A stretch of DNA of 63,162 bases, counting the filler. It is 6 parts of 6 records of this genome, joined end to end, with 100 filler letters (N's around TTAATTAATTAA, not from the genome) between each part and the next. Parts side by side here need not be neighbours in the genome. Positions count along the whole stretch, not along the records: positions 22,072 to 45,704 come from SRR31156797_18687; 5 more parts are not named here. One strand, 5' to 3'. The translations under genes were made by a program, and so were the position numbers. The notes beneath the pieces were generated by a model. The model ran no database searches. It was not told the origin of the DNA and saw only the letters and a list, made by a program, of their open reading frames with translations. Shown here piece by piece: positions 28,731-43,089 of the stretch (positions are counted from its first letter, which is position 1; every line of letters begins with the position of its first letter).

Positions 28731-28733
28731 GGA

Positions 28734-29075
28734 TTGGACGATTACTGTAAGTCTATTTCAAAGGCGGCACGGGGCTTCAGATGTTTGAGCTGGATTAATA
28801 TCACGCTAATTGTATATATCTGTATTTATGGAGTATTAAACTTTATCGAAAATGGAGAAATAACACCTATAACCCTCTCCTCGTTTACGAACATTATACT
28901 CAATGCTGTATGCTTTTTGTTTGCACGTCAATCCGCCATAAAAGCCTTATCAGACGGGGAATACCATAAGGTGAGAATGGAAACCCATCAGCGTCTGGAT
29001 TCCTACTACGAGTCTATGGTCTGTGAGAGAGAGCCAACAGTCGCTGTTCCTGTAGAGGGAACCGTTGTCGATTAA
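28734..29075 (+). CDS. Phage membrane protein
   Basis: Two hydrophobic segments; TTG start. Confidence 0.55.
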   Translation: MDDYCKSISKAARGFRCLSWINITLIVYICIYGVLNFIENGEITPITLSSFTNIILNAVCFLFARQSAIKALSDGEYHKVRMETHQRLDSYYESMVCEREPTVAVPVEGTVVD

Positions 29076-29316
29076 CAAACCGGTCCGGCAGTTCCGCCAG
29101 CATCGCGGTGGTCTGCGGGAGTCCATGGAGACTGTATGTACCGTCACTTCTTTGGATGATATCTACAAGCTCATGGAGCTGGAGAAGTGGGGAATTGAAA
29201 ACTGGCTCCAGATAAAACACTACACTTATGATGCCCGGACCAACTGGGACACATGGATGGTGACTTGCGAGGGCTACGGAGTCCTTGGGTTCACCGATGG
29301 CCCCCTTGACTTATGA
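29065..29316 (+). CDS. Phage hypothetical protein
   Basis: FRQHRGGLRESMETV...YDARTNWDT...GFTDGP. Confidence 0.6.
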   Translation: MSINKPVRQFRQHRGGLRESMETVCTVTSLDDIYKLMELEKWGIENWLQIKHYTYDARTNWDTWMVTCEGYGVLGFTDGPLDL

Positions 29317-29353
29317 AATGCACCAGTGCAGTTACTGGTGCATTTTTTTTTGC

Positions 29354-29836
29354 TCATCTGATTTTGATGATATTCGTTCTGTTGTAGTCCGGATTCATTC
29401 CGGTACTCCTTCCATTCACCAAGATATGATTGTAATCGATTCCGTTCCTCTCTCGGGAATACTCCCGCAAAGCCCGCGCCAAGATTGATACATTGTGTAT
29501 ACCCAGATCGAGGGCCTTCATGTGGTGTGACTTTTTACACCTTCCGCCTTTCTTGTACTCCCGGTAATCTTCGGCTACCCTGTGCTTTCTGTACGGAAGC
29601 TTATGCTTGGTGATGAGCCGCTCATTGCAGTTAATGTGCACCTCAATCCCAAACTTCCCACACCACCTGAACTCAAAAGGCGTGAAGTAAGCCTCCAGTA
29701 TCCGGTCTCCCTTGTATTCCAGTACAGCCAGATGCTCTTCAAAAGAGTCCCCATCGGCATACTCCCCCTGTCTGGCTACTCCTACAATATGGAAGTTCAG
29801 AATCATATCTTTCACACTTATTGTTTTTGGTATCAT
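29354..29836 (-). CDS. Phage hypothetical protein, leaderless class III start
   Basis: GACTAT-GAGAGC-ATG directly upstream. Confidence 0.65.
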   Translation of the reverse strand: MIPKTISVKDMILNFHIVGVARQGEYADGDSFEEHLAVLEYKGDRILEAYFTPFEFRWCGKFGIEVHINCNERLITKHKLPYRKHRVAEDYREYKKGGRCKKSHHMKALDLGIHNVSILARALREYSRERNGIDYNHILVNGRSTGMNPDYNRTNIIKIR

Positions 29837-29884
29837 GCTCTCATAGTCTGCGGGTCAGCCGGGAGGGATTTCTGATGACTAATC

Positions 29885-29913
29885 ATGACATCGTTTCGAG
29901 GCTATGTTAAGTT
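29885..29913 (+). promoter_or_regulatory. Class I promoter/operator
   Basis: ATGACA tcgtttcgaggctatgt TAAGTT. Confidence 0.75.
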
Positions 29914-29936
29914 ATTATCATATTTGGGAGGATTAT

Positions 29937-30254
29937 ATGAAAGTACTTGAAAGAGTCCTTGTGAAGATCAAGGAGTTCAATGAAATCCAAAAAAAGTATG
30001 CGGAGTTTGGAGGCAGAGATACTGAGCCCGATGCAGAGTTTCAGTTGGCCCTCTCCAAGGCCCTGAAAGGTAAGAAGGAAGTACCGCGTTCCGCAGATGA
30101 CTGGGCCCTTTACGGACATGCTGAAGGAGAGATGGTTGCCTATGAAATGACCACTAAAACAAATGAGATTGTTAAGCTGATCACACATGCTACAATATCA
30201 GAGCATGAGCGTCTTAAAGACGGTTTGGCTCCACACCTCTGGAGGATTCGGTAA
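29937..30254 (+). CDS. Phage hypothetical protein
   Basis: GGGAGG SD, ATG 29937, follows class I promoter. Confidence 0.7.
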   Translation: MKVLERVLVKIKEFNEIQKKYAEFGGRDTEPDAEFQLALSKALKGKKEVPRSADDWALYGHAEGEMVAYEMTTKTNEIVKLITHATISEHERLKDGLAPHLWRIR

Positions 30255-30494
30255 ATGGATATGGAGAAACTGAAGGAAGATCCGATTTACGGGAAGCATA
30301 ATTCAGTCAGCACCATTGAGCAGGTCTATGTGACCCCTCTGAAAAAAGAGATTATTGCTTGGGAAGGCATAAAAAAGACTGCGGAGGAGATCAATTACTC
30401 CGATCTGATCCAGCAGGCTACAAAGACTCTGGAAGAAATGGATGACTGCTTGCAGTATTATGAGTCCCACAAGCACCTCCTTGCAGGAGGCTGA
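30255..30494 (+). CDS. Phage hypothetical protein
   Basis: GGAGG SD, abuts previous stop. Confidence 0.65.
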   Translation: MDMEKLKEDPIYGKHNSVSTIEQVYVTPLKKEIIAWEGIKKTAEEINYSDLIQQATKTLEEMDDCLQYYESHKHLLAGG

Positions 30495-30516
30495 GAGCGG
30501 TTGGGTTAACCCACGA

Positions 30517-30545
30517 TTAACCTCGTTACGAAATCGTGTTAAGTT
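30517..30545 (+). promoter_or_regulatory. Class I promoter/operator (degenerate)
   Basis: TTAACC tcgttacgaaatcgtgt TAAGTT, then CAAGGAGTAGTTAGATG. Confidence 0.6.
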
Positions 30546-30577
30546 TTTATCAAATAGTTCAGTCAAGGAGTAGTTAG

Positions 30578-30961
30578 ATGACCGATGAAATGATTTACAA
30601 CCTTTACAGCCAGTACGGAAGCTTCATGGCGCCACTCGGCCTGAGTGACCGTCAGTTAAAGATGATTCAGAATTACCTCAGGGGGATTTCCGTTCCCGAT
30701 CTGGTCCAAGGTATGGCACAGATCCTTTCGATGCTTCAGAAAGGCGTCAGAGGCGCAGAAAGCCGCCCCATGGAGGATCTCTCTCAGATGGTTTGTGAAA
30801 CTGAAGACACCGCCATGGAAGGGTATATCTCTGACGCCACAGAGGACGTGATTCCGGTGGCAGAACGTACGGCTTTGAAGTACAATCAGACTACGCTCCA
30901 CAGTGGGTGTTTATCTTGGTTCGGATTGAGCCTTTTGTGGGGAGAAGAATATGATGATTAA
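30578..30961 (+). CDS. Phage hypothetical protein
   Basis: AAGGAG SD. Confidence 0.7.
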   Translation: MTDEMIYNLYSQYGSFMAPLGLSDRQLKMIQNYLRGISVPDLVQGMAQILSMLQKGVRGAESRPMEDLSQMVCETEDTAMEGYISDATEDVIPVAERTALKYNQTTLHSGCLSWFGLSLLWGEEYDD

Positions 30962-31184
30962 CGGCAGATCGCAGGCGAAACAGCATGATGAAATGCCTGC
31001 TTCCCATTTAGGGATGGCTCGGGTTTTGATGGTGACGGAGCGGAAGATTCTACTCCATGCAGGTAAGCGGATCATCGTCGGTGTTCATCACTGGATCGAT
31101 GAAAACGGTTCCATTCAGTGGGGAAACGGTCACTATCACAATGATGACCTGGTATCAGCAGTAGCAGATATGCAAAGAGATTAA
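30951..31184 (+). CDS. Phage hypothetical protein
   Basis: Overlaps previous stop; WGNGHY motif. Confidence 0.65.
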   Translation: MMINGRSQAKQHDEMPASHLGMARVLMVTERKILLHAGKRIIVGVHHWIDENGSIQWGNGHYHNDDLVSAVADMQRD

Positions 31185-31204
31185 AACAAAACGTTTTTTA
31201 TAGC

Positions 31205-31234
31205 AGAGCCTCCGGACAATCCGGGGGCTTTTTT
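31205..31234 (+). terminator. Rho-independent terminator
   Basis: AGAGCCTCCGGA-CAA-TCCGGGGGCTTT followed by T-run. Confidence 0.8.
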
Positions 31235-31247
31235 ATATACTGCGGGT

Positions 31248-31490
31248 ATGGATAATCCCGGTCTATTTGTAGATGAAATGATCAATATGATCTGTCTTCA
31301 AGTACTCACTCAGCGTAAAAGCTTCCGTCGCCCTATGGATCTCCGCGATAATCTAGACTTGTACACCGTTCAGAGGATCTCTGAAGAATACATGGGTGTG
31401 TATGGATTCAACATAGAGCTTCTCGATGAAGTAGTGGACCGTGTGATGTGGGATTGCATGGAGCAGATCATCGAGCACGAAAAGGGCTGA
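31248..31490 (+). CDS. Phage hypothetical protein, probably leaderless
   Basis: TATACT 6 nt before ATG, no SD. Confidence 0.6.
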   Translation: MDNPGLFVDEMINMICLQVLTQRKSFRRPMDLRDNLDLYTVQRISEEYMGVYGFNIELLDEVVDRVMWDCMEQIIEHEKG

Positions 31491-31793
31491 CTACATGCCT
31501 ACCAGATTCCTGTCGGAGTCTCTCTTGGTCAGGGCGAAGTGCTGGTACGTCGTCCCATCCAATACCACATTCTCCAAGAAGTACTCGACGCTGATCATCG
31601 CCTGTACATTTGAGCCGGGGATCTCAAGACAGACCTGCTCTTGCCCGGTTGCATATTCAACAATGATTCCCAGCACATGCACAAGTTCACCACAACAGTG
31701 CACGTAAAGCCCCGGTTCAATCTTTGCCTTTGGCTTATAGTATCTTATGTCTTCGAATGCCTTAAGCATTTTCTTCTTTGTTGAAACTGCCAT
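31491..31793 (-). CDS. DUF1653-like protein, leaderless class III start
   Basis: PGLY-H--G----VLG...T-QE-V...F-E-V--DG pattern; AACTAT-AAAGGC-ATG. Confidence 0.55.
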   Translation of the reverse strand: MAVSTKKKMLKAFEDIRYYKPKAKIEPGLYVHCCGELVHVLGIIVEYATGQEQVCLEIPGSNVQAMISVEYFLENVVLDGTTYQHFALTKRDSDRNLVGM

Positions 31794-31803
31794 GCCTTTA
31801 TAG

Positions 31804-31831
31804 TTGACAATATTGTAGCGTACGCTACAAT
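31804..31831 (+). promoter_or_regulatory. sigma70 promoter containing a perfect 20-bp palindrome
   Basis: TTGACA 31804, ATTGTAGCGTACGCTACAAT 31812-31831 whose last 6 nt are the -10 (TACAAT); ATG 31839. Confidence 0.72.
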
Positions 31832-31838
31832 TGAACTT

Positions 31839-32675
31839 ATGAAAGCATTAAACCAATACCAGAAGTTCGAGATGGCCTATGAGTTTTTCAACCGGGCATT
31901 GTTTCACAACCAGCTCCCGGAGGCCTTCATTACCCTCCAGTCGAAGGGTGGTTCCTACGGCTACTATTCGGAGGGCCGCTTTCGGAGAGGGACTGGAGGG
32001 GATGAAAAGCTTGATGAGATCGCACTGAATCCCGACTATTTCTTTTATGGTGAACTGGAGGTACTCCAGACACTTGCACATGAAATGGTGCATCTCTGGC
32101 AACATCACTACGGGACCAAGAGTCGTTCCGGATATCACAATCAGGAATGGGCAAACAAAATGGAAGCCATAGGGCTAATGCCTTCCGACACGGGTAAGCC
32201 GGGAGGGAAGAAGACCGGGCAGAAAGTGGCCGACTATGCTATTGAGGGAGGTCCTTTCATGGAGGCCGTGACCGCGCTCAATGAAGCTGAAGGAGCTATA
32301 GTAGATTGGGGATACTTCTCATGGGAGTCTCACCGGCTGGAGCAGATCCACCTGATTAGAGAGAATATGATGTACATGGAGTCCGTAGAGGGGGTCCGTC
32401 AGGGCTCGTATATCACAGTTGGACCTTCCACAGTAATGGTGGATGATGTAGATGAAAATGAGAACTCAGTCAATTTTCACACAGTGGCCGGTCCGGAGCT
32501 TCCCCCTAATGAAATCAATGAAATCCTCGACGGATTCATAAAAACCCCCCAGATAGTCAGGGACAGGGGTAAGAACAAATATTCCTGCCCAAGCTGTGGT
32601 CTGAGCATCTGGGGGAAAGCAGGGATCCGCGTGTTGTGCATGGAGTGCGATGTGCAACTCCAAAAAAGCAATTAG
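31839..32675 (+). CDS. SprT-like zinc metalloprotease with C-terminal zinc ribbon
   Basis: FN--LF---LP, AHEMVH, GYHN-EWA-KM--IGL-P, KYSCPSC...CMEC. Confidence 0.85.
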   Translation: MKALNQYQKFEMAYEFFNRALFHNQLPEAFITLQSKGGSYGYYSEGRFRRGTGGDEKLDEIALNPDYFFYGELEVLQTLAHEMVHLWQHHYGTKSRSGYHNQEWANKMEAIGLMPSDTGKPGGKKTGQKVADYAIEGGPFMEAVTALNEAEGAIVDWGYFSWESHRLEQIHLIRENMMYMESVEGVRQGSYITVGPSTVMVDDVDENENSVNFHTVAGPELPPNEINEILDGFIKTPQIVRDRGKNKYSCPSCGLSIWGKAGIRVLCMECDVQLQKSN

Positions 32676-33652
32676 GCGGCGTTATCGATCAGACAACCTC
32701 GGAGATCCTGAAAGATCCTTCCACCAGCAAACTTTGAAAACAAGTTAGTATCTGCCTTGCTCAAGGTAGCAAGAAGTTCAGGGTTCTCCTTGGTGAAATC
32801 AGACATAGCATCCTCCATGTAATACGTTGCATACTCCTGAATCTTCGGGAACTCCTCCAGAGGACCATACTTCGAAAAAAGAGAATCAAGCCTCTCCTCA
32901 TTTACATACGCCGAGAACTCGTTCAATGCGGCTTGAAGCTCGGGTGAAAAATCCTTGGGGGCCTTCACCCTTGGCTTGGACTTCTCAAGAAACTTCTTAT
33001 TCTTCACCTTGAACGCCACTAGATGTTCACCAGCGTATCTAGTGACGTAGTAAGGAGTATACACCAGCCCTTCCCTTACGTTGTCTCCTGAGTGATCCTC
33101 AGGCGTCAGGGCGGACATCCTGTGAGGCTCGAAGGAATTCAGTATCTCCCATAGCCCTCCAGCTTCACAATGCTTGATTAAACCTATCACCGGCACCTTC
33201 AGATCCAGAAAGCTCATCAGTAGTCGGCTGGCCTCAAATGGTGTCAGATACTCCCCATCGATTCTCACTGCATACCAGCGAAACAGTTTCGCTGCTCCAT
33301 AGTTCACACCCTTCTGAACAGATCCCCCAAAGAGCTCCCCGTAAACCTGCACAACTTCTCCAGAGAGTGCACAATATCCAGACAGGTGACCTACCAACTC
33401 CATGAATCGATCATTATTAAGTAGCTTATGATATCCGTAGAACTTGTCTCCTTCTTTCAGGACCTTTGTCCGGGAGCAGAACTTGATAGGCTTATCAGGT
33501 TCACATAGGAGCGAGAAGTTTGCTCCATGGATTTTTTCTGTCACCTCGTAGGTGAGACTTCTCAGTTCAGGGTACCGCTCGTCCCAAATACCCAGCGTGG
33601 CCCTGTGGTTACTCAATGTGAGTTCCGAATACTTCTTAAACATTTCGCTCAT
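32672..33652 (-). CDS. RNA ligase 2 (T4 Rnl2 family)
   Basis: FKKYSEL, motif I EKIHGANFS, QVYGELFG--VQKGV-YG, REGLV, FKVKN-KF-E. Confidence 0.88.
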   Translation of the reverse strand: MSEMFKKYSELTLSNHRATLGIWDERYPELRSLTYEVTEKIHGANFSLLCEPDKPIKFCSRTKVLKEGDKFYGYHKLLNNDRFMELVGHLSGYCALSGEVVQVYGELFGGSVQKGVNYGAAKLFRWYAVRIDGEYLTPFEASRLLMSFLDLKVPVIGLIKHCEAGGLWEILNSFEPHRMSALTPEDHSGDNVREGLVYTPYYVTRYAGEHLVAFKVKNKKFLEKSKPRVKAPKDFSPELQAALNEFSAYVNEERLDSLFSKYGPLEEFPKIQEYATYYMEDAMSDFTKENPELLATLSKADTNLFSKFAGGRIFQDLRGCLIDNAA

Positions 33653-33692
33653 ATCCTTCTCCTTGATTCCATCAACAGCTTCATATTGAAGT

Positions 33693-33722
33693 AAGTACGC
33701 GGCGTAGCTCCGGATTAGAGAA
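33693..33722 (-). promoter_or_regulatory. Class II motif TTCTCTAA-N17-TACTT
   Basis: Minus strand TTCTCTAA tccggagctacgccgcg TACTT upstream of Rnl2. Confidence 0.7.
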
Positions 33723-33742
33723 ATATATTAAAAAAAACTTGC

Positions 33743-33771
33743 TTGACCTCGTTTCAGGGTCATGTTAAGAT
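33743..33771 (+). promoter_or_regulatory. Class I promoter/operator
   Basis: TTGACC tcgtttcagggtcatgt TAAGAT, then CCAAGGAGTTGTTAGATG. Confidence 0.78.
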
Positions 33772-33801
33772 CTTTACATCTTATATCCAAGGAGTTGTTA
33801 G

Positions 33802-33912
33802 ATGGATCGTGAGTTTATCTGTAATGCAATGATTTTCCTGCTCATGTGCGGCGTTCCCGGTGCGATGGTTTTCTGGTTTGTGATTCTTGGTAAGCCTTGC
33901 AAATGGAAATGA
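33802..33912 (+). CDS. 36-aa single-TM peptide (absent from ORF track)
   Basis: MDREFICNAMIFLLMCGVPGAMVFWFVILGKPCKWK; own promoter and strong SD. Confidence 0.7.
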   Translation: MDREFICNAMIFLLMCGVPGAMVFWFVILGKPCKWK

Positions 33913-33914
33913 AA

Positions 33915-33943
33915 ACTATATAGTAGAGGGTAACCTCAGGAGG
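33915..33943 (+). promoter_or_regulatory. Class III motif followed by 5' hairpin and SD
   Basis: ACTAT-ATAGTA-GAGG GTAA CCTC-AGGAGG. Confidence 0.62.
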
Positions 33944-33948
33944 GAATC

Positions 33949-34173
33949 ATGTTCCGCAGAAAGTTACATCACATAGTAACGCAATCAGAGCTCTGGGAAT
34001 ACTTCGAAAAGTATGCCCGCTATCATGAGCAATCCGGGCAGTACTGCTTGTGGGATATTTTCGATCAGACCCTTGAGGGTTTGATGCAGAAAGTAGAGAA
34101 GGTCTGGAAGTATGAGCGATTTCACCCGGACCATACACTGACCACAGAACAAGTGCTGGCACTCCCAGCATAA
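33949..34173 (+). CDS. Phage hypothetical protein
   Basis: AGGAGG SD, followed by terminator. Confidence 0.68.
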   Translation: MFRRKLHHIVTQSELWEYFEKYARYHEQSGQYCLWDIFDQTLEGLMQKVEKVWKYERFHPDHTLTTEQVLALPA

Positions 34174-34180
34174 TGAGACG

Positions 34181-34207
34181 AGCCTCCCAATCGGAGGCTT
34201 TTTTTTT
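34181..34207 (+). terminator. Rho-independent terminator
   Basis: AGCCTCC-CAATC-GGAGGCT followed by T-run. Confidence 0.82.
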
Positions 34208-34212
34208 GATAA

Positions 34213-34242
34213 TTCTCTAAAGAATGTCAATTTCCCGTACTT
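34213..34242 (+). promoter_or_regulatory. Class II motif TTCTCTAA-N17-TACTT
   Basis: TTCTCTAA agaatgtcaatttcccg TACTT, ATG 7 nt later. Confidence 0.7.
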
Positions 34243-34249
34243 CTCAGGT

Positions 34250-34801
34250 ATGGAAAAAATTACCGCATATAACTTGAAAACCGCTATACTTTCATATTTC
34301 CGATTCAAGCGTCAAATGCTCTGTGCAACAGAAGTGCATGTAGGATTAGGATACATGGGTGATGTGGTTGCTATCAACAAAAAAGATGAAGTATTAGAGA
34401 TCGAAGTGAAGATCAGTCTATCGGATCTGAAGAACGAACAGAGGCACAAGAAAGAGAAGCATTCTGCACTTGTGCAAGAGTCCCGAGCAAAAGTTAATTA
34501 TTACTATATAGCTATTACTTCTGAGCTCTATGAGAAGGCCAAACCAGAGATAGAAGCGCTCAGTCCTAAGTATGGAATCATCACTTGGCATCGATGCTCA
34601 AACCCTAAAATGCAGAACTCAGAGTTTGAAGTGAATATCATGAAAAGACCCACAAAGCTCACTAGCAAAATTTTCCCAGAATACCGGAAGAATATAGCCA
34701 AGCGAGCTTCAAGTGAGCTGATCAACTTACATCGAAAAATGCTAAAAGTTAATGGTTGGAATATTCTGAGGGATCAAACCAAATCTGTCCTCCGTTCTTA
34801 A
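34250..34801 (+). CDS. MmcB-like PD-(D/E)xK nuclease
   Basis: ATEV...DVVA...EIEVKIS-SDL, NYYY, YGII. Confidence 0.7.
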   Translation: MEKITAYNLKTAILSYFRFKRQMLCATEVHVGLGYMGDVVAINKKDEVLEIEVKISLSDLKNEQRHKKEKHSALVQESRAKVNYYYIAITSELYEKAKPEIEALSPKYGIITWHRCSNPKMQNSEFEVNIMKRPTKLTSKIFPEYRKNIAKRASSELINLHRKMLKVNGWNILRDQTKSVLRS

Positions 34802-35078
34802 TCGTGACATCATAAATTGAGTTCTCAGCATCAAATACTGTCTGAATAAATGTTTTCAATTCAATGTCTTTTTGCATAGCTTGTTTGTACACAGCCGTGA
34901 GGATCTTCATGGCATCAATATCTCGTTGAGCGATCTTACAGAACTCACCATAGGTATAAATGGTGTTCCGGAAGTGTACAAAGAGCTTCTCATCACGTGA
35001 GAAAAACTCAACTCCTGTGAATTCTTGTAGTTGAATTTTTTCCAATAATCTACCATATTCGGTAAAGGGCTTACTCAT
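34749..35078 (-). CDS. Phage hypothetical protein, leaderless class III start
   Basis: GACTAT-AAATTT-ATG. Confidence 0.62.
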   Translation of the reverse strand: MSKPFTEYGRLLEKIQLQEFTGVEFFSRDEKLFVHFRNTIYTYGEFCKIAQRDIDAMKILTAVYKQAMQKDIELKTFIQTVFDAENSIYDVTIKNGGQIWFDPSEYSNH

Positions 35079-35122
35079 AAATTTATAGTCCTATTTTTTA
35101 TGAGGTTTCTACTCTAGAATTG

Positions 35123-35151
35123 TTGACATCGAATCGAGGCCATGATAAGGT
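35123..35151 (+). promoter_or_regulatory. Class I promoter/operator
   Basis: TTGACA tcgaatcgaggccatga TAAGGT, then CCAAGGAGTTGTTAGATG. Confidence 0.78.
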
Positions 35152-35181
35152 GTTATCAACAAAGAGCCAAGGAGTTGTTAG

Positions 35182-35469
35182 ATGGCTAATTTTTCTGTAA
35201 AGATTTCTAAGAAGGCGCTGAAGAACTACAAAGATTTACCCAGTTCAGTACAGAGGAAGCTACAGCTTCTAATTGATTCCCTTGAGGAACATGGCCCTGT
35301 ACAGACGGCGTTTCGGAACTACTCCAAAATGGGGTCGTACTGTAACCTTGGAAATAATGCACACCACTGCCACTTGGCACCCAGATACGTTGCTGTCTGG
35401 CGGTGTGATGAAGCAGGAAGAGAAGTAGAGGTGGTGTATGCTGGTACACGTGAAAAAGCCCCGTATTGA
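35182..35469 (+). CDS. RelE/HigB-like toxin
   Basis: V-ISKKA-K-Y--LP--VQ...GPV...NYSK...HHCHL---YVAVW...EV-Y-GT-EKAPY; 95 aa, precedes HTH gene. Confidence 0.75.
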   Translation: MANFSVKISKKALKNYKDLPSSVQRKLQLLIDSLEEHGPVQTAFRNYSKMGSYCNLGNNAHHCHLAPRYVAVWRCDEAGREVEVVYAGTREKAPY

Positions 35470-35800
35470 AATGGAGGGGGACATCCCCCTTGATTTCATC
35501 GAGGACATGAGATGTAGATTTGGTTCTGAGAATGTTGAAGTCATCGACGACTCTCAGTCTCTTCTTGTCCGGGAGCTCACTGAGTTTAAAAAGCCCCTGA
35601 CCCCCGGAGAGAGACTGAAGACACTACGTGAGATGAAGGGCATGACTCAGAAGGAGCTTGCAAAGTTGGTGCACTCAAGAGACACCAACATTTCATTACT
35701 AGAGTCTGGAAAGAGGGTAATATCCGAAGAGAAGGCAGAAGCTTTTGCTCAGGTATTTGAAGGCGTAAGCCCTCGCTTCTTCCTGACGAAGAAGGATTGA
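35438..35800 (+). CDS. XRE-family HTH antitoxin (HigA-like)
   Basis: PGERLK-LRE-KGMTQ-ELA...IS-LE-GKR-IS; overlaps toxin. Confidence 0.78.
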   Translation: MLVHVKKPRIEMEGDIPLDFIEDMRCRFGSENVEVIDDSQSLLVRELTEFKKPLTPGERLKTLREMKGMTQKELAKLVHSRDTNISLLESGKRVISEEKAEAFAQVFEGVSPRFFLTKKD

Positions 35801-36891
35801 GAATGATACACGATAAGTATTTCTCATATGCTCTCCCTATGGTCCATGAGATGCGTAATATGTCAGAAGCAGAGTTTGTTCGCTTGCTCTTGTCCCGGCA
35901 GGCGCAGGGGGATAATGAGTTTACGCTAGATCTGTACAATCTTGCGAACGGTAAAGATTATAATCTGGAAGCCCTTCAGACGAACTTTACTCTTGCACAC
36001 TCCTTCATGGCTCAAAGCTTTGACGAAGAACGGAATGTTTACGTGATGGAGGAAGAGTTGACCAATGCGCTCAGCTCTTCCTCCATCAAAATCCCAGTAT
36101 CTGAGATTGTTCCTCCAGTCAATTCCTTTATGCTGTATCATGGGTTGTCCTACGAAAATCTTGGATATGAGGCCTTCAAACATCACCTGATTGAATGCTC
36201 CCATGTACACATCGTTCGCCTGAAGGATTGCACCCACATCATGATCGCTGATCTAATCAAGAACTTGAAAGATGCACATTCAAATGATCCTCAGCGCCGT
36301 CAGCTTTGTTATGAAAATACAGGATACTCAAGCTTGATGTTGCCCCATGAGGAAACGTACGAGAAGTCTATTGTTCTGGATTCCCGACGAACTGAGATGA
36401 ATGACAAAGGTTATGTTGGGCAGGACCCGACACTCAATAATATCGAGTTCAAAAAAGCTTTCCTTGATGTCCGGGACCGCATTACTCATGTAGTCATAGC
36501 CCTGTGTTCTTATCTGGAGATGGAGCAGGATATTGAGATCGTAAAACCTGAATGGACACGAGAGATGGTGGACAAGATCTCCAACCCCAAAAAGCGCCGC
36601 AGAGCAGAGAAGAAACTTGCACAAGAGGCGTCATATGCAGTGCATTATGTCGGGAAGAAATACCAGAGAGAGGTACAGAACAAACTGGCCTCTGCTGGTC
36701 TTCCCCGCAGTTACAAATATCAGATAAAAGTCCCCGGCCACTTCAACTACTACTGGTATGGGAAGAGAAAGGACAAGAACGGAAACCGTGTCAGAGGTGA
36801 AGTCCGGAAACCCAAATGGCTGGAGCCCCTGATTCGTTTGCCAGAGCTCCCTGAGGCCCCTGAGAAAGGGCACCTGTACAAAGTGAGATGA
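35797..36891 (+). CDS. Phage hypothetical protein
   Basis: 364-aa ORF; C-terminal V-GHF--YWYG...KW--P motif. Confidence 0.75.
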   Translation: MRMIHDKYFSYALPMVHEMRNMSEAEFVRLLLSRQAQGDNEFTLDLYNLANGKDYNLEALQTNFTLAHSFMAQSFDEERNVYVMEEELTNALSSSSIKIPVSEIVPPVNSFMLYHGLSYENLGYEAFKHHLIECSHVHIVRLKDCTHIMIADLIKNLKDAHSNDPQRRQLCYENTGYSSLMLPHEETYEKSIVLDSRRTEMNDKGYVGQDPTLNNIEFKKAFLDVRDRITHVVIALCSYLEMEQDIEIVKPEWTREMVDKISNPKKRRRAEKKLAQEASYAVHYVGKKYQREVQNKLASAGLPRSYKYQIKVPGHFNYYWYGKRKDKNGNRVRGEVRKPKWLEPLIRLPELPEAPEKGHLYKVR

Positions 36892-36895
36892 GATC

Positions 36896-38908
36896 ATGAA
36901 TAAAGACCTGACAAGCAATACACGTGCAGACTACAACGACGACCGTACCCCTATTGAGGTAGGGCAGTGGTACTGGGTGCCAGGATATGAAAATGAAAAA
37001 TATAACCTGTCGTATTTTGGCTTAGTGGTGGGAGGACCTGAGGGTGCCCTTCTGATGTGTGTAACGCATGTTGGATCTAACTATGTTGAACTGGCCTCTC
37101 TGAGTAGCCAGCGTCATGGAAAGGCATCAAGGCGCATTCACCTTGAAAACTTCGATGAGAAAACTATATATGTCCCGAATGCTGAAGACCTGTTTCAAAA
37201 GTCTCTAGGACACCATCGAGGTGAGCTGAAGAAGTTGATGAATGAGGTTCGTAAAGTCACTGCGCTCCTTGGGGTCTCCGATAAAGAGATGATTGGAGAG
37301 CAGTCTGTAGAAGCAAACAGCACAGCGCTAGCCTTACAAAACTCAAATATCTCAGCTAGTGAATATAAGAAAGATCTGATTAGAGCAAAAGATCAAACTC
37401 TCCCAGATCTCTTCGAAAAGGTAAAGTCAAAAAATCAAGAGATTGCTACTCTTATGTCCCATGAAGTAGTTGCGCTTAGTGCAGTTATCGATGGTATGGA
37501 AGAGGTCAAAGGCGCAATTGAAAAGAGGATTTTCAATGTCTCCCTATATGCTGGACTGATTGAAGAAGTTACTTGCATACATGAAGGAGAACCGGGTGCC
37601 TTCCATGAACAAGTCCACCTTTTCCAGAAATGCCTTTATATGGATGAAGAGTGTTTGGTCAATTATGAAGCTGGCGGAATGGAGTTCCGTGACATCCAAG
37701 AGTTTGATGAATGGCTCTGTAGGCCTGAGTACATGCACAGGTATTTGCCTTATGAGAAGTGCATTGTCGCATTTCAGGTGAGACGGAATGTCAAAGACCG
37801 AGGACCTATTGAATCCATAGCTGATGCTTTCATTCGCTTCTATTTGGAGCAGAAGGATAAACTGACCTTCCTGTATATGAGGAACGGTGAGCAGGTATAC
37901 AGGCTCTCTACGGATCTGGAGTTCAGGGATCTTATTTTCCCAAGCTTGAAAGACTTTGATCCTTCATCCCCCATGACAGTCAAGCTGGATTCATGGGGCC
38001 GGGCTGAACGGTTTATGAACACTACCTCCTTCGAAAAGCTCAAAGCTGACGAAGATAAGGAAAATGAAGAGAGAAGACGAAACAGAGAGCAGTGGTTTAA
38101 GGATAATCCCGAAGACGAATGGAAGAAGCACGGGCAGAACAGGAACTTCAGTTACAAATATGCTAATCCCTTTGCAGAATGGGATAGTACTGAATATCAA
38201 AGTTCAAGTTGGGTACCTTTCAATAAATCTTCCGTGTACTACGATGACATCTCAAAATCACTGAGTGATAAGATTGAACACTACAACCGGATTGCTTTGA
38301 TCATGCAGGGACTTCTAGACAGATCTGAAATCTTTCACCCCCATCCTCCAATCAAGACATGGAAAGGAGACAGCTTCCAGCAGATGGTTAAGCTCATCTA
38401 CGATGGGGAGATGAACATCTATAATGGGGAGAAGCCTGACTTCGACGCCTACAAAGAGAAGTGTAATGCACAGATCAATCGTGACTCGGTGTTCTATGGT
38501 CAAGATGCGCTCTGGAAAAAGCATGTTCAGCGAGTAGAAAATGACAGAAGAGCTGGATCTTACAAGTACTACGGGGAGAATTGGCAGGTGAACGATAGGT
38601 GGACTCCTGAAGGAAACGACGGTCCCCAACGGATATCAAAGCCTGTCCGTATGAGTCGAGACCTCTCAAAAGCTACTTTCGAGTGGATGAGGAGAATTGA
38701 GAACTGGAGATCTGAAAACTACGGGACAGATAAAGTTGCACGTTTTACTGCACCAACTTCTGAACTGTTCAATGTCAGTGCATATCAGCCGGGTGATTTC
38801 AAGCAGTTCTTTGAGGACCCCAGAACTCGTGAAGAATACCTGAAATGGGCTCCCTTGCTTCTGGCTTGTGAGGACTATTATGCGCAGTCGGGGCGAGGAG
38901 GGAAATAA
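36896..38908 (+). CDS. Large phage hypothetical protein with coiled coil
   Basis: 670-aa ORF; LYAGL-E, YMDEECL, CIVAFQVRR. Confidence 0.8.
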   Translation: MNKDLTSNTRADYNDDRTPIEVGQWYWVPGYENEKYNLSYFGLVVGGPEGALLMCVTHVGSNYVELASLSSQRHGKASRRIHLENFDEKTIYVPNAEDLFQKSLGHHRGELKKLMNEVRKVTALLGVSDKEMIGEQSVEANSTALALQNSNISASEYKKDLIRAKDQTLPDLFEKVKSKNQEIATLMSHEVVALSAVIDGMEEVKGAIEKRIFNVSLYAGLIEEVTCIHEGEPGAFHEQVHLFQKCLYMDEECLVNYEAGGMEFRDIQEFDEWLCRPEYMHRYLPYEKCIVAFQVRRNVKDRGPIESIADAFIRFYLEQKDKLTFLYMRNGEQVYRLSTDLEFRDLIFPSLKDFDPSSPMTVKLDSWGRAERFMNTTSFEKLKADEDKENEERRRNREQWFKDNPEDEWKKHGQNRNFSYKYANPFAEWDSTEYQSSSWVPFNKSSVYYDDISKSLSDKIEHYNRIALIMQGLLDRSEIFHPHPPIKTWKGDSFQQMVKLIYDGEMNIYNGEKPDFDAYKEKCNAQINRDSVFYGQDALWKKHVQRVENDRRAGSYKYYGENWQVNDRWTPEGNDGPQRISKPVRMSRDLSKATFEWMRRIENWRSENYGTDKVARFTAPTSELFNVSAYQPGDFKQFFEDPRTREEYLKWAPLLLACEDYYAQSGRGGK

Positions 38909-38909
38909 C

Positions 38910-39092
38910 ATGGGAGAAATTTCGGATTTGATCATCGAGGGAATCCTCTGTGAAATCTGTGGCGTTGTCGTGAATACTGAGCCCGTAGGATACCCGGTTA
39001 GATGTGACAACTGCCTTCAGGAAAGGCTTGAAATGCCCAAGGGGAGTCATTCCCTGCTGAATGTTGATGCAGTAAAGAAGGGAGACTGTTAG
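38910..39092 (+). CDS. Small zinc-finger protein
   Basis: AGGAGG SD; MGEISDLIIEG-LCE-CG...GYP-RC-NC. Confidence 0.65.
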   Translation: MGEISDLIIEGILCEICGVVVNTEPVGYPVRCDNCLQERLEMPKGSHSLLNVDAVKKGDC

Positions 39093-39553
39093 TGGCTAGT
39101 GTCTTAAAGCATCCGGGTGGTGGCTATAGGGTATCTTGGTTTGACCCGGAGCACCAGTTGCATCAAGAGTACTACTACGGAGAGAGAGCCTTCTCCCTTG
39201 CACATCGACGAAAGAACGAGATTGAGAATCTCATTCCTGACGGTCGGTTAATCCCAAAGATTCAAAAGAAAAAAGGACGTGCAAGTAAGACAGGTAGGAT
39301 TGGTGTCTTTTACCAGAAGGGTTACAAAAAGACATCTGGAAAAGACGTTTACCCATATTACTATGTCAGTATTCATTATGACAGGAATGGTAATCAACGA
39401 AGAAGAACTGCGACCTTCTCTGTGATCAAGTATGGAGAAGAGAATGCTTTTAAGCTGGCCTGTGAACTTCGACAAATGTATGAAGAGTGTATTGATCCTT
39501 TTGATATGGAGAGGTTCTGGGATTTTAAAGATGCACAAAGAGAAGGTTGGTGA
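39092..39553 (+). CDS. AP2-like DNA-binding protein (paralogue B)
   Basis: S-TG--GV, TFSV-KYGEE-AF-LA---R AP2 motif. Confidence 0.65.
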   Translation: MASVLKHPGGGYRVSWFDPEHQLHQEYYYGERAFSLAHRRKNEIENLIPDGRLIPKIQKKKGRASKTGRIGVFYQKGYKKTSGKDVYPYYYVSIHYDRNGNQRRRTATFSVIKYGEENAFKLACELRQMYEECIDPFDMERFWDFKDAQREGW

Positions 39554-39554
39554 G

Positions 39555-39854
39555 ATGGAAGTCAAATCACTTAACGATCTTGCATGGGAACTTGCAGAGT
39601 ATCATTCGATTACCCTGTATGAATACCCCAACTTTGCAATCTGGGAAGAGGCTAAAAGTGGTGGGATTTTCAAGACATCGGAAGAGTGGGATGGTTGGAA
39701 TCGTCGACAACTGTGGTCCCTATTTAAGTCCATCATGGAGTTTCGAGCAGTAGAAGGTGATACAGAGTCAACTTATGGTAAGCATATTGATATGGCCGAC
39801 AAGACTCTGTTGGCGTTTAGAAAGATATTAGGAGTTCTTCAAGATGGGAGATAA
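39555..39854 (+). CDS. Phage hypothetical protein
   Basis: ATG 1 nt after previous stop. Confidence 0.6.
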   Translation: MEVKSLNDLAWELAEYHSITLYEYPNFAIWEEAKSGGIFKTSEEWDGWNRRQLWSLFKSIMEFRAVEGDTESTYGKHIDMADKTLLAFRKILGVLQDGR

Positions 39855-40053
39855 TTGGCTAGATGTATACAACGGATTGATACAAGGCTACCAATCCCGA
39901 ACAAATGAGAAATTTGAAGAGAATGTTCCTTTTCAGCCCCCAAAGAATGTTCAAGAGGCAAAAGAAAACATTTCATATCTGAGGAGCTGTTTTTACGATC
40001 TTCACACTGATGTAGATTGTTTTTTATCTCGGGGAATGGGAGAACTTGAATGA
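39844..40053 (+). CDS. Phage hypothetical protein
   Basis: AGGAG SD, coupled to neighbours. Confidence 0.55.
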   Translation: MGDNWLDVYNGLIQGYQSRTNEKFEENVPFQPPKNVQEAKENISYLRSCFYDLHTDVDCFLSRGMGELE

Positions 40054-40235
40054 ATGTACGGGAACTGAAAAATGCCATGATTCGTCTGGAGCGACATGGC
40101 TATAAAGAGGTGGAAGTGCATATGTTTGCACATGACCATGACTACGAAGCAGTGGATCAGGGTGTTGGAGAAGTCGTTTATGTGGACTTTGTAGAGCGTG
40201 AAGATGGTAGCGAAATTGTGGCCCTTCACCGATAG
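40050..40235 (+). CDS. Phage hypothetical protein
   Basis: ATGA overlap. Confidence 0.6.
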   Translation: MNVRELKNAMIRLERHGYKEVEVHMFAHDHDYEAVDQGVGEVVYVDFVEREDGSEIVALHR

Positions 40236-40259
40236 TCTGTAGAACAGGAGGTAGCTGAC

Positions 40260-40565
40260 GTGGAAGAGTATTTTAAAGCGGAGATTTATCAGGCGGGTGA
40301 CAGTAGTGTAGGGATCTGGGATTTTCATCATGTTCTTGATCTGGGCTACAACCGGGAGGATATTCTGGACCCGGATGAGCCCGAAGAGCGTGAAGCGCTT
40401 CGAAAGAAAGTTCTTGAGCTCTATAAAATGATCTGTGACCCGGGTAATCCGATTCAGGTGACCTTCTCGGATGAGTGCGCCTGTTGTGGTGCAAGAAACG
40501 GCGCAGAACATGCGTCATGGTGTGATGTTGATCTGGAAACACTGCCAGCCAGCGAGATAGCGTAA
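40260..40565 (+). CDS. Phage hypothetical protein with C-terminal Cys/His cluster
   Basis: AGGAGG SD, GTG start; GD-SVGI motif; CACC...H---C. Confidence 0.65.
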   Translation: MEEYFKAEIYQAGDSSVGIWDFHHVLDLGYNREDILDPDEPEEREALRKKVLELYKMICDPGNPIQVTFSDECACCGARNGAEHASWCDVDLETLPASEIA

Positions 40566-40570
40566 GCATC

Positions 40571-40750
40571 ATGGCTGTAATGTACGGAAAAAAAGAAATC
40601 GAAACATTGCGGGTTCTTCAAGGACAGTTTGATCCTGATTTGCCGTACGGAGGTAGCGAAGTTCTGGAAGTAATCGAAAATATGATTGAGCTTCTGAAGG
40701 ACGGTTTTTCTTTGGAAGAAATCAAAGAACAAGGCTGTGGAATTGGATGA
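40571..40750 (+). CDS. Small hypothetical protein (59 aa, absent from ORF track)
   Basis: MAVMYGKKEIETLRVL...; fills the gap in a + strand gene string. Confidence 0.5.
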   Translation: MAVMYGKKEIETLRVLQGQFDPDLPYGGSEVLEVIENMIELLKDGFSLEEIKEQGCGIG

Positions 40751-40816
40751 ACTTAACTTCTGATAATAGATCTTCCGTCTACATCTTGATTTACATATAT
40801 AGACAAAGGAGTATTT

Positions 40817-41125
40817 ATGCAAAATGATTATAAAAATTTGTCTTTGGGGGAACTTTATGTGATGCAACGCAAAATAAATAGTGCAATAAAATTGAAGGAG
40901 AGGCAAGAAAAGCGATTAGCTCAAAGAAAAAACATTAAAGCTGTGCGGGACAACCTTAAGATCCATCAATGGGTAGTTTGTTCATTTGGTCACGGTGGAC
41001 GTAAACAGGAGACCGGTCAGGTCATCTCTATTGGTATGGAAACGTTCAAGGCTATTCTACCTGATGGCTCCACACCAAATATCCCATATCATCGAATTTT
41101 GGAAGTGAAAAATGGAAATACTTGA
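40817..41125 (+). CDS. Phage hypothetical protein
   Basis: AAGGAG SD; N-terminal helix plus SH3-like strands. Confidence 0.65.
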   Translation: MQNDYKNLSLGELYVMQRKINSAIKLKERQEKRLAQRKNIKAVRDNLKIHQWVVCSFGHGGRKQETGQVISIGMETFKAILPDGSTPNIPYHRILEVKNGNT

Positions 41126-41849
41126 AACAACTGATTATTCAAAGTTCTCTTACATACATGGAAATAGGAATGTGGATGAATCACATGTAAACCAGCTAGT
41201 TGGGGCGATCAAAGAAACAAACCTATACAAGCCCCTCTATGTCACCCCCTCCTTACAAATCCTTGAGGGTCAGCATACACTGTCAGCGTTGGAAATCCTC
41301 AAGCTACCTGTGTATTATATTGTGGTTCCTGAAAGAACCCGCGCAACGTCTCTTAGGGACATTGGACTTTTGAACACAAAGACGAAACCGTGGACAGCTA
41401 AGGATTTTCTGAATAACTATGTGTCCCAGAATCTCCCCGCTTATGTTATATTTAAGCGGTTCATGAGTGACTTTGGCTACTCCCTTGCTGTGACACAGGT
41501 CATCTTCTTTCATCAGACTATTTATGGTGAAAAAGTTAATCGGAGCGTAGTCTTCCGGGATGGCCTGATGAGTATCAGCGAAAAACAAAAAGAGCAAATC
41601 TGGAATGTTGGTAAGATGATCCAACAAATGAAAGATACTACTTTAGGCTGTGATGGGATTATCGGAACAAAGAAAAGCATTGCCGCTCTTTTAGATATTT
41701 TCCATAGAAGTAAGTTCAGCATTACCCATTTCCTACAGAAGCTGGAGGAACGGCCTAACACTCTGCACTACGAGGAAAGCCTAGAAGCATATCTCTTTCA
41801 ATATTTGAGCATTTACAATTACAAAACACCAAGAATTGAAAGAATTTAG
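41112..41849 (+). CDS. ParB/Srx-like N-terminal domain protein
   Basis: TTDYSKF----GNR-V---HV--L...P--V...I-EGQH-L-A...PVYYIV. Confidence 0.72.
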   Translation: MEILETTDYSKFSYIHGNRNVDESHVNQLVGAIKETNLYKPLYVTPSLQILEGQHTLSALEILKLPVYYIVVPERTRATSLRDIGLLNTKTKPWTAKDFLNNYVSQNLPAYVIFKRFMSDFGYSLAVTQVIFFHQTIYGEKVNRSVVFRDGLMSISEKQKEQIWNVGKMIQQMKDTTLGCDGIIGTKKSIAALLDIFHRSKFSITHFLQKLEERPNTLHYEESLEAYLFQYLSIYNYKTPRIERI

Positions 41850-41865
41850 CTGAAATCTGATCGAT

Positions 41866-42186
41866 ATGCCCTGCCAACTATCATGGCATGGAGCATACTG
41901 GCGCACGAAGTGCAAACACATCAATCAGGTAGCCTCCGGGTTGAAGTTTCTAGTGGAAAAGAAGCTAGTTCAACCCGGAGGCTATAATCTTGACTGGGGA
42001 GGCGGTAAGTATGACAGCGGCACCCAGTATCTAAAATCGCACAACATTGAAAATGTAGTATATGACCCCTACAATCGGTCCCCAGTGCATAACCATAAGG
42101 AGATCCTTGACAACCTTCCGATCTCTGAATCACAGGTATTCCGCGATGGGAAGCTCCTTTTGATAAAGAAGTATTTGGACACTTGA
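41866..42186 (+). pseudogene. Short or internally deleted methyltransferase-like gene
   Basis: LDWGGGKYD and VYDPYNR present but only 106 aa. Confidence 0.45.
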
Positions 42187-42211
42187 CACCGTTTCGAGGT
42201 CATGTTAAGTT
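42183..42211 (+). promoter_or_regulatory. Class I promoter/operator
   Basis: TTGACA ccgtttcgaggtcatgt TAAGTT. Confidence 0.8.
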
Positions 42212-42234
42212 CTTATCACAGAGAGGAGAAAAAC

Positions 42235-43089
42235 ATGGCTAACGAGTTCATAAAAGTACTGGACAGAGAGACCAAACAGGATATCCGCCATTGGGCCAGA
42301 AGGTACAAGGGGTATGAAAGCCCCGTACGAACCTTCCTGAAGTGGTGTGAGGACTCGAACCGCTTTGAACTGACCATGGAGGTGTTGGCGGACTACCGGG
42401 ACTATATTGCTCCGAAGTACCAACCCTCCACTGTCAGGAACAAGCTCTCCTCTCTTAAAAGCCTATACAAATATTTGAGCTTTGCGGACGATAACCGAAT
42501 CTATGTAGACCATGACCTTTCTCAGATCCGCTCTGGAGTGCAAGTGCGGCACAACGGTGCACTTTCACATAGGATCTTCACTCATGAGGAACTGGACAAC
42601 TTCTATGTTAGTGCACGACGTGAATATCAGTGGGTGGTCCGTGCACTCTTCCACTCGGGTGTCCGTATTAGCGAGCTTCACCAAATGAATCTGAACCGGA
42701 TGGAGTACCGCCCTCATTTAGGAGAGTATGTTCAGACGGTAAAGACCAAGACGGGAGAAAGGGAGCTCCGCTTGTCTACACAGATCTTCGAAGCACTGGT
42801 TGCATTCTGGCAGGACTCTCGGGATGAAGAAGGGAACCTGTTTGGAATGAAGCTGAATACCTTCAACAAGGCGGTTAGCCGGGAGATCAAGCGCCATGGA
42901 GGTCATACTCTCTCCGCTCACTCTACACGTCATACCCTCGGCACCTATATGGTTGAAGCCGGAATTGACTACTCCGAAATTCAGCAGAGACTGGGACATT
43001 CTGACATATCCATCACCCTGCGGTTCTACGTAAAATCTCGCTACACTGAGGCTGGACAGAGGGTCATTGAAGGCCTGATCGGAGCATAA
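42235..43089 (+). CDS. Tyrosine recombinase (XerC/D-like)
   Basis: SGVRISEL, TK, HSTRHT, LGHS-I--T--Y catalytic set; SAM-like N-domain. Confidence 0.88.
   Translation: MANEFIKVLDRETKQDIRHWARRYKGYESPVRTFLKWCEDSNRFELTMEVLADYRDYIAPKYQPSTVRNKLSSLKSLYKYLSFADDNRIYVDHDLSQIRSGVQVRHNGALSHRIFTHEELDNFYVSARREYQWVVRALFHSGVRISELHQMNLNRMEYRPHLGEYVQTVKTKTGERELRLSTQIFEALVAFWQDSRDEEGNLFGMKLNTFNKAVSREIKRHGGHTLSAHSTRHTLGTYMVEAGIDYSEIQQRLGHSDISITLRFYVKSRYTEAGQRVIEGLIGA

Follow-up and report, generated by a model that had tools for sequence, protein, structure and literature searches.

We have analyzed a stretch of DNA of 63,162 nucleotides (the window), within which a phage-like contig carries five closely similar promoter blocks, here termed class I promoters. 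We propose from their sequence that these are copies of a sigma-70-type promoter cassette bearing the autoregulatory operator of a helix-turn-helix (HTH) protein, and that the cassette has been copied onto other operons, which would give a burst of transcription followed by shut-off. We regard the chances of this reading as evenly balanced. It is carried by the conservation of the promoter spacers, by the symmetry within them, and by the position of one copy before a gene pair that encodes a candidate operator-binding protein.

Runs of N with a TTAATTAATTAA core at 21973-22072 and 45705-45805 divide the window into three draft-assembly contigs placed end to end, and all five blocks lie in the middle one. 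The genes of the outer contigs are of ordinary cellular kinds (adenine deaminase, a sigma-70 factor, TrkH, SufBD, FeoAB and ABC transporters), while the middle contig is phage-like. Since they are joined by N linkers, physical linkage between the contigs is not established. Positions 25705-45704 lie with 0 differences inside a single contig of 152,783 bp (a Logan contig from one public run that is probably the source of this DNA, and hence not independent of it), which reaches ~95 kb past the right end and ~34 kb past the left end of the part seen in the window. Recognizable open reading frames (ORFs) of the middle contig encode two HTH_3 proteins, an AP2-like protein, an Rnl2-type RNA ligase, SprT-like and radical-SAM proteins, a ParB-like protein matching a nuclease PHROG, and a tyrosine recombinase. 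The majority of its ORFs have no known function, and none of them matches a capsid or terminase. The middle contig most likely belongs to a phage genome of ~150 kb or more, 23.6 kb of at least 152.8 kb being visible here. No close relative was found in the collections searched (viral, genome and metagenome contigs, and cultured phages); the motif as an exact IUPAC pattern had 0 matches in the viral, genome or metagenome contig collections, and no cultured phage was matched by 29000-43000 in megablast.

A sequence-only reading of this DNA had reported five class I promoters on the + strand, and each is found where it was placed (Table 1). The conserved block is longer than that reading had it, extending over 36 bp with the consensus TTGACM TCG-WWW-CGAGGYCA TG-W-TAAGnT nTTATCA. 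The -35 hexamers are all close to TTGACA (TTGACA twice, and TTGACC, ATGACA and TTAACC once each). In all five blocks there is a spacer of 17 nt, a TG at -15/-14 and a -10 element of TAAGTT, TAAGAT or TAAGGT, in which the second base is A and the sixth T, as in an extended -10 promoter. Each block is followed on the same strand by an ATG, at distances of 52, 61, 59, 59 and 52 nt for sites 1-5, and each ATG is preceded by a Shine-Dalgarno sequence. Sites 1, 3 and 4 lie within divergent intergenic regions, and sites 2 and 5 downstream of co-oriented genes. Each block stands at the head of a co-oriented operon, short or long, in which small genes without known function predominate. From these features of the sequence we consider it very probable that the blocks are active promoters of the sigma-70 type. 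Two other readings of the block were tried and rejected. CtrA sites have the form TTAA-N7-TTAA, and the A/T tetramers of the -10/+1 region are 4 nt apart; activation of the MerR type needs a spacer of 19-20 nt, and that of the class I promoters is 17 nt.

The blocks stand out sharply from the remainder of the window. Searching with a 27-nt IUPAC consensus, 3 mismatches being allowed, recovers 4 of the five sites, and 100 shuffled sequences give no match. A position weight matrix (PWM) built from the five sites and applied to both strands of all 63,162 bases scores its own sites at 47-57 bits. The next-best matches, at 9.4 bits, come from sites 1 and 3 read in reverse, and thus no further copy was found by PWM on either strand of the window. 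Elsewhere in the 152.8-kb contig there is an exact 43-nt copy of 35116-35158, the block of site 4, in the same orientation and ~24 kb to the left of 25705. The five sites are therefore a lower bound. That comparison was made at 95% likeness, at which copies that have diverged as much as sites 1-5 have among themselves would escape.

On the minus strand of site 1, at 29882-29910, we also observe a mirrored promoter-like match, TTAACA-17-CATGAT with a TG, that has the dyad as its spacer and faces a divergent ORF of 160 aa (29354-29836).

The sequence-only reading had held that the spacers are conserved along with the hexamers, and this is borne out. The mean pairwise identity among the five copies is 0.77 in the -35 element, 0.71 in the spacer, 0.88 in the -10 element and 0.76 in columns 30-36. 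The flanks are at random levels, 0.27 over the 20 nt that precede the block and 0.33 over the 12 nt that follow it. As the flanks are random and the spacer is kept, simple recent duplication fails to explain the conservation. The copies are old enough for neutral similarity to have gone, and the spacer has nevertheless been retained. None of the contacts known for sigma-70 RNA polymerase calls for a spacer conserved in this way.

The conserved spacer is part of a 19-bp dyad, TGACCTCG-N3-CGAGGTCA, that occupies columns 2-20 of the block, with a 7-N3-7 core of GACCTCG-TTT-CGAGGTC. As a consensus this element, proposed by the same reading, is real; in the individual copies it is degenerate, and its symmetry taken alone is marginal. 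The number of complementary pairs in sites 1-5 is 5, 4, 6, 6 and 6 of 8, or 27 of 40 in total. In the left arm there is frequently an A where symmetry calls for C, and this substitution improves the match to TTGACA, so that these bases look as if they had to satisfy two readers at once. Within the window the dyad, allowing up to 4 mismatches in 16, is found at the five promoters only. We think that the dyad is probably an operator bound by a protein.

The first gene behind site 4 encodes a 95-aa RelE/YafQ-like protein (RelE_StbE, E = 4.4e-4, 20.7 bits against a cut-off of 27.9; YafQ_toxin, E = 0.0046), and the second, overlapping it by 32 nt, encodes a 120-aa HTH_3 protein of the XRE/HigA-like kind. 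The HTH_3 match, like that of an antitoxin of this class, is well above its threshold (E = 6.3e-11, 42.6 bits, cut-off 23), and the match to the TIGR02607 model of HigA is at 19.2 bits with a cut-off of 47.7. Among proteins of the PDB the best profile match is DBP48, followed by C.BclI (E = 5.4e-11); HipB, Xre and the 434, P22 and lambda repressors are matched as well. The predicted model of the 120-aa protein (predicted local distance difference test score, pLDDT, 86.7) has a small N-terminal beta-beta-alpha-beta unit connected by a flexible linker to a five-helix HTH domain, and the latter superposes on P22 c2, DNA-bound Proteus vulgaris HigA, CapH and C.BclI. In sequence and in modeled fold, the protein thus resembles dimeric operator binders, making it a good candidate for the protein that would bind the dyad.

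An exhaustive search with the 120-aa HTH protein returned 503 representative proteins at E ≤ 0.001. These include a set of full-length relatives of ~120 aa that are 30-40% identical, some of which are labeled as XRE regulators or HigA antitoxins by JGI. The metagenome contexts fetched around one member, P0187, comprise seven loci, of which five were examined (L063 and L066 were left out). The sequences upstream of the pair in L061 and L062 are identical, leaving four distinct upstream regions. In L064 the HTH gene is preceded by one for a full-length homolog of the 95-aa protein (38% identity over 93 aa, E = 1e-17), and the two genes have the same overlap of 32 nt, while L060-L062 and L065 retain C-terminal remnants of it only. 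In all four distinct regions there is a palindrome centered on 3 nt just before the toxin-like ORF: TAGTCAA-ATT-TTGACTA, TAGTCAT-ATT-TTGACTA, TACCCCA-TTA-TGGAGTA and TACCCCT-TTA-TGGGGTA. In L064 and L065 it lies between -35-like and -10-like hexamers, placed by eye. As a rough estimate, the chance of each such placement is ~0.1, dyads of this kind occurring 1-3 times per 700 bp in the same loci. By sequence, then, a putative palindromic operator lies in the pair's own promoter both at site 4 and in the four regions of the relatives.

The phage contig contains a paralog of the HTH gene, whose product is 30% identical to the 120-aa protein over 123 aa (E = 2e-11, full-length). Two palindromes of the form TATCGCR-N3-YGCGATA lie at its promoter (26341-26357 and 26375-26391), and the spacer and part of the -10 element are taken up by the second. 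The class I dyad and these palindromes share the 7/8-N3-7/8 layout with an A/T center. On the basis of the promoter palindromes of the relatives and of the paralog, the position of its gene behind site 4 and its likeness to dimeric binders, we take the 120-aa HTH protein to be the best candidate binder of the class I dyad; whether it is the actual binder we put at about an even chance. The ATG of the paralog at 26400 sits 6 nt after the -10 element, which makes a leaderless mRNA probable for this gene. In its N-terminal region the protein matches PADLOC PD-Lambda-2_B (E = 1.1e-17).

A second promoter type, TTGACA-16-TACAAT, which is close to the consensus, precedes the SprT-like gene. Its spacer and -10 element together form a perfect 20-bp palindrome at 31812-31831, and a 21-nt exact copy of it is present elsewhere in the 152.8-kb contig. 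By its sequence this looks like a second operator specificity.

The genes that would be driven by the class I promoters are listed in Table 1. The sequence-only reading had named a toxin-antitoxin (TA) pair, a tyrosine recombinase and a membrane peptide as targets, and these correspond to the RelE-like and HTH proteins behind site 4, the recombinase behind site 5 and a hydrophobic 36-aa peptide behind site 3. The long run of co-oriented ORFs headed by site 4 also encodes a 364-aa protein, a 670-aa protein, the AP2-like protein and the ParB-like protein. PDB sequence searches with the 364-aa, 670-aa (as a profile) and 490-aa proteins gave nothing usable. In the leaders of sites 2-4 there is a 16-nt ribosome-binding block, AAGGAGTTGTTAGATG, at 30565-30580, 33789-33804 and 35169-35184.

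Table 1. Positions of the class I promoter blocks, the genes behind them and other features of the middle contig. Positions count along the window.
Feature	Position	Strand	Description
Middle contig	22073-45704		Phage-like fragment between N linkers; holds all five sites
Site 1	29885-29920	+	Dyad 29886-29904; -10 TAAGTT 29908-29913; before ORFs 29937-30254 and 30255-30494; site 2 directly next
Site 2	30517-30552	+	Dyad 30518-30536 (4/8 pairs); -35 TTAACC; most degenerate copy
Site 2 operon	30578-30961, 30951-31184	+	Two ORFs, then terminator-like site 31205-31231
Site 3	33743-33778	+	Dyad 33744-33762; 36-aa hydrophobic peptide 33802-33912; 74-aa ORF 33949-34173
Site 3 operon end	34180-34200		Terminator-like site
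Site 4	35123-35158	+	Dyad 35124-35142; heads co-oriented ORF run to 42186, RelE-like/HTH pair first; then site 5
95-aa RelE/YafQ-like protein	35182-35469	+	First gene behind site 4
120-aa HTH_3 (XRE/HigA-like) protein P0122	35438-35800	+	Second gene behind site 4
670-aa protein	36896-38908	+	Site 4 operon; marker linking the contig to phages of 130-190 kb
AP2-domain protein	39092-39553		Match below cut-off
MerR-like 59-aa protein	40571-40750		Marginal match
Site 5	42183-42218	+	Dyad 42184-42202; tyrosine recombinase 42235-43089, then two unknown proteins 43103-43612 and 43706-45178
Site 5 operon end	45186-45219		Stem-loop and T run
Paralogous HTH_3 gene	26341-26798	+	Probable start ATG 26400; own promoter TTGACA (26364)-18-GATATT
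Second promoter type	31804-31831	+	TTGACA-16-TACAAT; before SprT-like gene

The 670-aa protein provides a marker that links the contig to other large phages. Among 7,999 candidates scored there are 978 relatives at E ≤ 0.001, all unnamed or hypothetical. The best is 44% identical and the relatives in general ~40%, with many invariant residues; no sequence match was found in Pfam, PHROG, PADLOC or the PDB. Its carriers include IMG/VR contigs of ~7 kb to 529 kb, many longer than 100 kb, together with two cultured phages, Mesorhizobium phage Cp1R7A-A1 (131 kb) and Erythrobacter phage vB_EliS-L02 (150 kb). The latter is described as a lytic CbK-like siphovirus (PMC9127768). When the ORFs of the contig were compared by tblastn with 57 IMG/VR loci, essentially only the 670-aa protein was in common, negatives for the ORFs starting at 29937, 33802 and 42235 being excluded as these queries were one base off. 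By tblastn, no homolog of the 120-aa HTH protein lies within 10 kb of the marker in the other phages that carry it.

We searched these phages for promoter families by grouping 27-nt stretches anchored on TTGAC with at least 16 of 27 positions identical. Promoter-like families of three or more members are found in 6 of the 57 marker loci (L001, L007, L025, L026, L032 and L050) and in both cultured phages; five further groups (in L007, L016, L031, L040 and L048) were judged to be coding-sequence artefacts. By eye, the spacers contain GTGCAC-N3-GTGCAC in L001, the direct repeat CTCCnTAG in L007, GGAMAAATTGTCC in vB_EliS-L02 and L025, GTAGGA-N7-TCCTAC in L032, AGGGCCCT in L050 and TTGAnnTCAA in L026. 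The 185-kb record of L001 contains 19 exact matches to TTGAC-N3-GTGCAC-N3-GTGCAC, with 5 more at one mismatch and 9 at two, and the reversed control gives 0. In vB_EliS-L02 (OL955261.1) the family TTGACA-nn-cCGGAaAAATTGTCCTAt has 12 matches, 1 of them with a mismatch, against 1 in the control. All 12 fall in 76-117 kb, a 41-kb region of the 150-kb genome, and 10 are on one strand. This confinement indicates that such families mark regional, and probably temporal, classes of promoter, in a lytic phage included. In Cp1R7A-A1 (MT188704.1) we observe CTTGACA-N4-TGTCAAG palindromes at 9968-9985 and 17256-17273, which place TTGACA on both strands, and a separate five-member family on one strand. No description of these families was found in the literature on vB_EliS-L02, Cp1R7A-A1 and phiCbK promoters, covered for the vB_EliS-L02 and phiCbK papers by a search for terms. 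A promoter family with a symmetric spacer element thus recurs in the marker phages of 130-190 kb, with a different sequence each time, and this aids the annotation of transcription units in uncultured phages.

The same proposed operator is found at several promoters, five in the window and at least one more in the same contig, as in a regulon of multiple promoters under a single repressor. With one copy standing before the operon of the regulator itself, the promoters of the set would all be active at first and later be repressed in concert. On entry the regulator would be absent, and all copies could fire. As the HTH dimer accumulated, possibly with its RelE-like partner, it would occupy positions -34 to -16, and the bound dimer would exclude RNA polymerase from its own operon and from the other copies, so that the burst would be followed by shut-off. 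We infer that the effect is repression rather than activation. The earlier proposal of a dispersed regulon under one dimeric repressor is indirectly supported with respect to the shared, spacer-constrained promoters and the HTH candidate behind site 4, and is weakened in that the symmetry alone is only marginally beyond chance. In a more ambitious form of this scheme, a pair of the TA type would have come to serve a large phage as its master timer, with its self-repressed cassette copied before at least five other operons (those of the recombinase, the membrane peptide and small early-type genes). The ratio of RelE-like to HTH protein, and not a Cro/CI switch, would then set shut-off or re-firing, for example if a labile partner were degraded under stress. 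We consider this form doubtful.

A number of observations weigh against the proposal that the cassette carries the operator of the HTH protein. Permuting the columns of the block gives at least 27 pairs in 349 of 5000 cases when gaps of 0-7 nt are allowed, so symmetry alone is unconvincing; with the center fixed at 3 nt the figure is only 59 of 5000, which is in favor of the dyad. In site 2 no more than 4 of the 8 pairs remain. As the dyad is never seen apart from a promoter, operator and promoter are inseparable by occurrence. There is a second dyad, missing from the sequence-only reading, TGTTAAG-NN-CTTATCA, over the -10 and start region (columns 21-36, e.g. 42203-42218), with 28 of 35 pairs; taken as 8+8 it has 29 of 40, a value reached by 105 of 5000 permutations, and it is at least as good as the first. 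It is not accounted for by the proposed model. The -10 hexamers agree with TATAAT at just 3-4 of 6 positions, and in consequence a generic promoter scan lists site 3 alone, one of the five. The 16-nt ribosome-binding block is identical at sites 3 and 4 and has 1 mismatch at site 2 (3 matches against 0.5 expected), so that duplication of whole cassettes must have played a part; the block could reflect such duplication or could be a translational operator. Regarding the regulator, the RelE-like assignment of the 95-aa protein lies below the curated cut-offs, the family comparison amounts to two lineages and one paralog, and the position of the dyad differs from that in L064, being shifted upstream by ~6 bp in the window. 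Any DNA-binding protein encoded in the ~129 kb of the phage contig that lie outside the window could, moreover, be the regulator.

Several of these points would be expected if the blocks were no more than an extended promoter consensus, a strong early or middle class spread by duplication of a promoter-leader cassette, with incidental symmetry and no dedicated binder. The frequency of equally symmetric permutations, the absence from the window of any dyad without a promoter, the shared ribosome-binding block and the exact 43-nt copy of site 4 all agree with this, as do the 12 family members of vB_EliS-L02 that look like a temporal class. It would leave unexplained why a G+C-rich spacer is kept at an identity of 0.71 between flanks at 0.27-0.33. 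Nor does promoter strength alone explain why the families of other phages, in 6 of 57 loci and both cultured phages, show a dyad or direct repeat in the spacer when inspected by eye, or why promoters of the TA family show the same geometry. We judge this explanation unlikely. A regulon of the same design could instead have a different binder, such as the AP2-domain protein, the MerR-like protein, a phage protein encoded outside the window or a host factor, the HTH protein being merely one of those regulated. Only 23.6 kb of at least 152.8 kb of the phage is visible, the contig has several further DNA-binding candidates, and the spacer dyads of the other marker phages are quite different, with no HTH homolog within 10 kb of their marker by tblastn. 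Against this, the relatives of the RelE-like/HTH pair have N3-centered palindromes in their own promoters and the HTH paralog of the contig likewise has palindromes at its own; of the alternatives in the window, the AP2 match is under its cut-off (27.0 against 33.3 bits) and that to MerR is marginal, covering 22 residues. A binder other than the HTH protein has, in our view, a small share of the probability.

The dyad might instead act as a structure in nucleic acid, as a hairpin promoter for a phage polymerase of the N4 virion RNA polymerase type, as a cruciform, or as a hairpin for RNA processing or termination. A stem-3-nt-loop-stem does resemble the hairpins of N4 early promoters, and transcription could read through sites 2 and 5 from the co-oriented genes upstream. 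An N4-type hairpin would have a stable stem of 5-7 bp and a loop of 3 nt, whereas here 4-6 of the 8 pairs form. The single strands fold with energies of just -1.0 to -3.0 kcal/mol, and site 3 alone improves on its shuffled sequences (z = -2.4, the other four lying between -0.7 and +0.6). Variants among the five copies break pairs, with no compensatory change seen. Pair-breaking variants and weak folds together give the pattern of a degenerate protein site and not of a hairpin. The dyad is not followed by a T run, the geometry of -35, TG and -10 is good for the host polymerase, and no polymerase gene was found among the ORFs of the middle contig. A structural role is accordingly extremely improbable. 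The sequence-only reading had also offered lysogeny or a carrier state, in which a repressor would silence the operons in an immunity circuit. There is a tyrosine recombinase among the driven genes and there are two HTH genes of the Cro/CI type, but the recombinase scores far below the curated cut-off of every integrase and Xer family, and it would itself be controlled together with small early-type genes and genes of the replication type. Since the contig ends at assembly breaks, neither an attachment site nor a junction with host DNA can be seen. The candidate regulator is co-transcribed with targets and not divergent from them as in an immunity region of the lambda type. The closest cultured carrier of the marker, vB_EliS-L02, is described as lytic (PMC9127768) and has a promoter family of the same kind. 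We thus found no link to lysogeny and think such a circuit very unlikely; an early burst followed by shut-off fits the evidence better than does an immunity repressor.

Most of the genes behind the blocks are without known function, and membership of one co-regulated class would be their first functional grouping. If it is true that a TA-like pair controls the class, such modules would serve as timing devices in lytic or large phages, beyond addiction or defence.

In its logic, the nearest worked-out analog of the proposed regulon is that of Regp576 (EGeRS2) on the Bacillus conjugative plasmid p576, where four strong promoters carry Reg operators and one of them precedes reg (PMC8708921). Both systems have several copies of one promoter with the same operator, and in both one copy lies before the gene of the repressor (a candidate in the present case), so that expression from all members is adjusted by the repressor; a rapid, transient burst after entry has been proposed for the plasmid (PMC8708921). 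Reg is a ribbon-helix-helix protein, and its site, a dual direct heptamer, immediately precedes the -35 element and in some regions also lies downstream of the start (PMC8708921). Here the candidate is an HTH protein of the XRE type, the site is a palindrome inside the -35 element and spacer, and the element is a phage rather than a plasmid. Binding has been shown for Regp576 (PMC8708921), whereas the binder proposed here is a candidate from sequence alone.

In its parts, the nearest analogs are the HigB-HigA modules such as Proteus vulgaris HigBA (PDB 6chv, 9chn and 9chl). There too the toxin gene comes first and the HTH antitoxin second with overlapping reading frames, and the module carries a palindromic operator within its own promoter; the HTH fold of the antitoxin matches the predicted model with a template-modeling (TM) score to target of 0.64-0.66. 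The antitoxin-like protein described here differs in its modeled extra N-terminal beta-alpha-beta domain, the toxin match is under the family cut-offs, and the promoter with its proposed operator, instead of being confined to the module, recurs before at least four additional operons. The controller (C) proteins of restriction-modification systems (C.BclI, C.AhdI and C.Esp1396I), with their C-boxes, offer a further parallel, being small dimeric HTH proteins of the XRE type with palindromes at their own promoters and timed, self-limited expression, and apart from DBP48 they are the best sequence matches of the 120-aa protein's HTH domain. In contrast to the class I set, the targets of a C protein are one or two promoters of a single gene pair, subject to both activation and repression by it, and no restriction or methylase genes are linked to the blocks here.

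Dispersed protein sites are found in other phages. The C1 operators of P1 and the stoperators of mycobacteriophage L5 are likewise one short site repeated across a phage genome, and those sites are asymmetric. Cluster O phages contain a 17-bp dyad, TGTTCGG-NNN-CCGAACA, mostly with a TTT/AAA center and of unknown function (PMC4351075). It shares the 7-N3-7 layout, but most of its sites lie off promoters (PMC4351075), whereas every copy of the class I dyad is fused to one. What appears to be new here is that the repeated cassette is the self-promoter of a TA-like pair from an uncharacterized HTH family.

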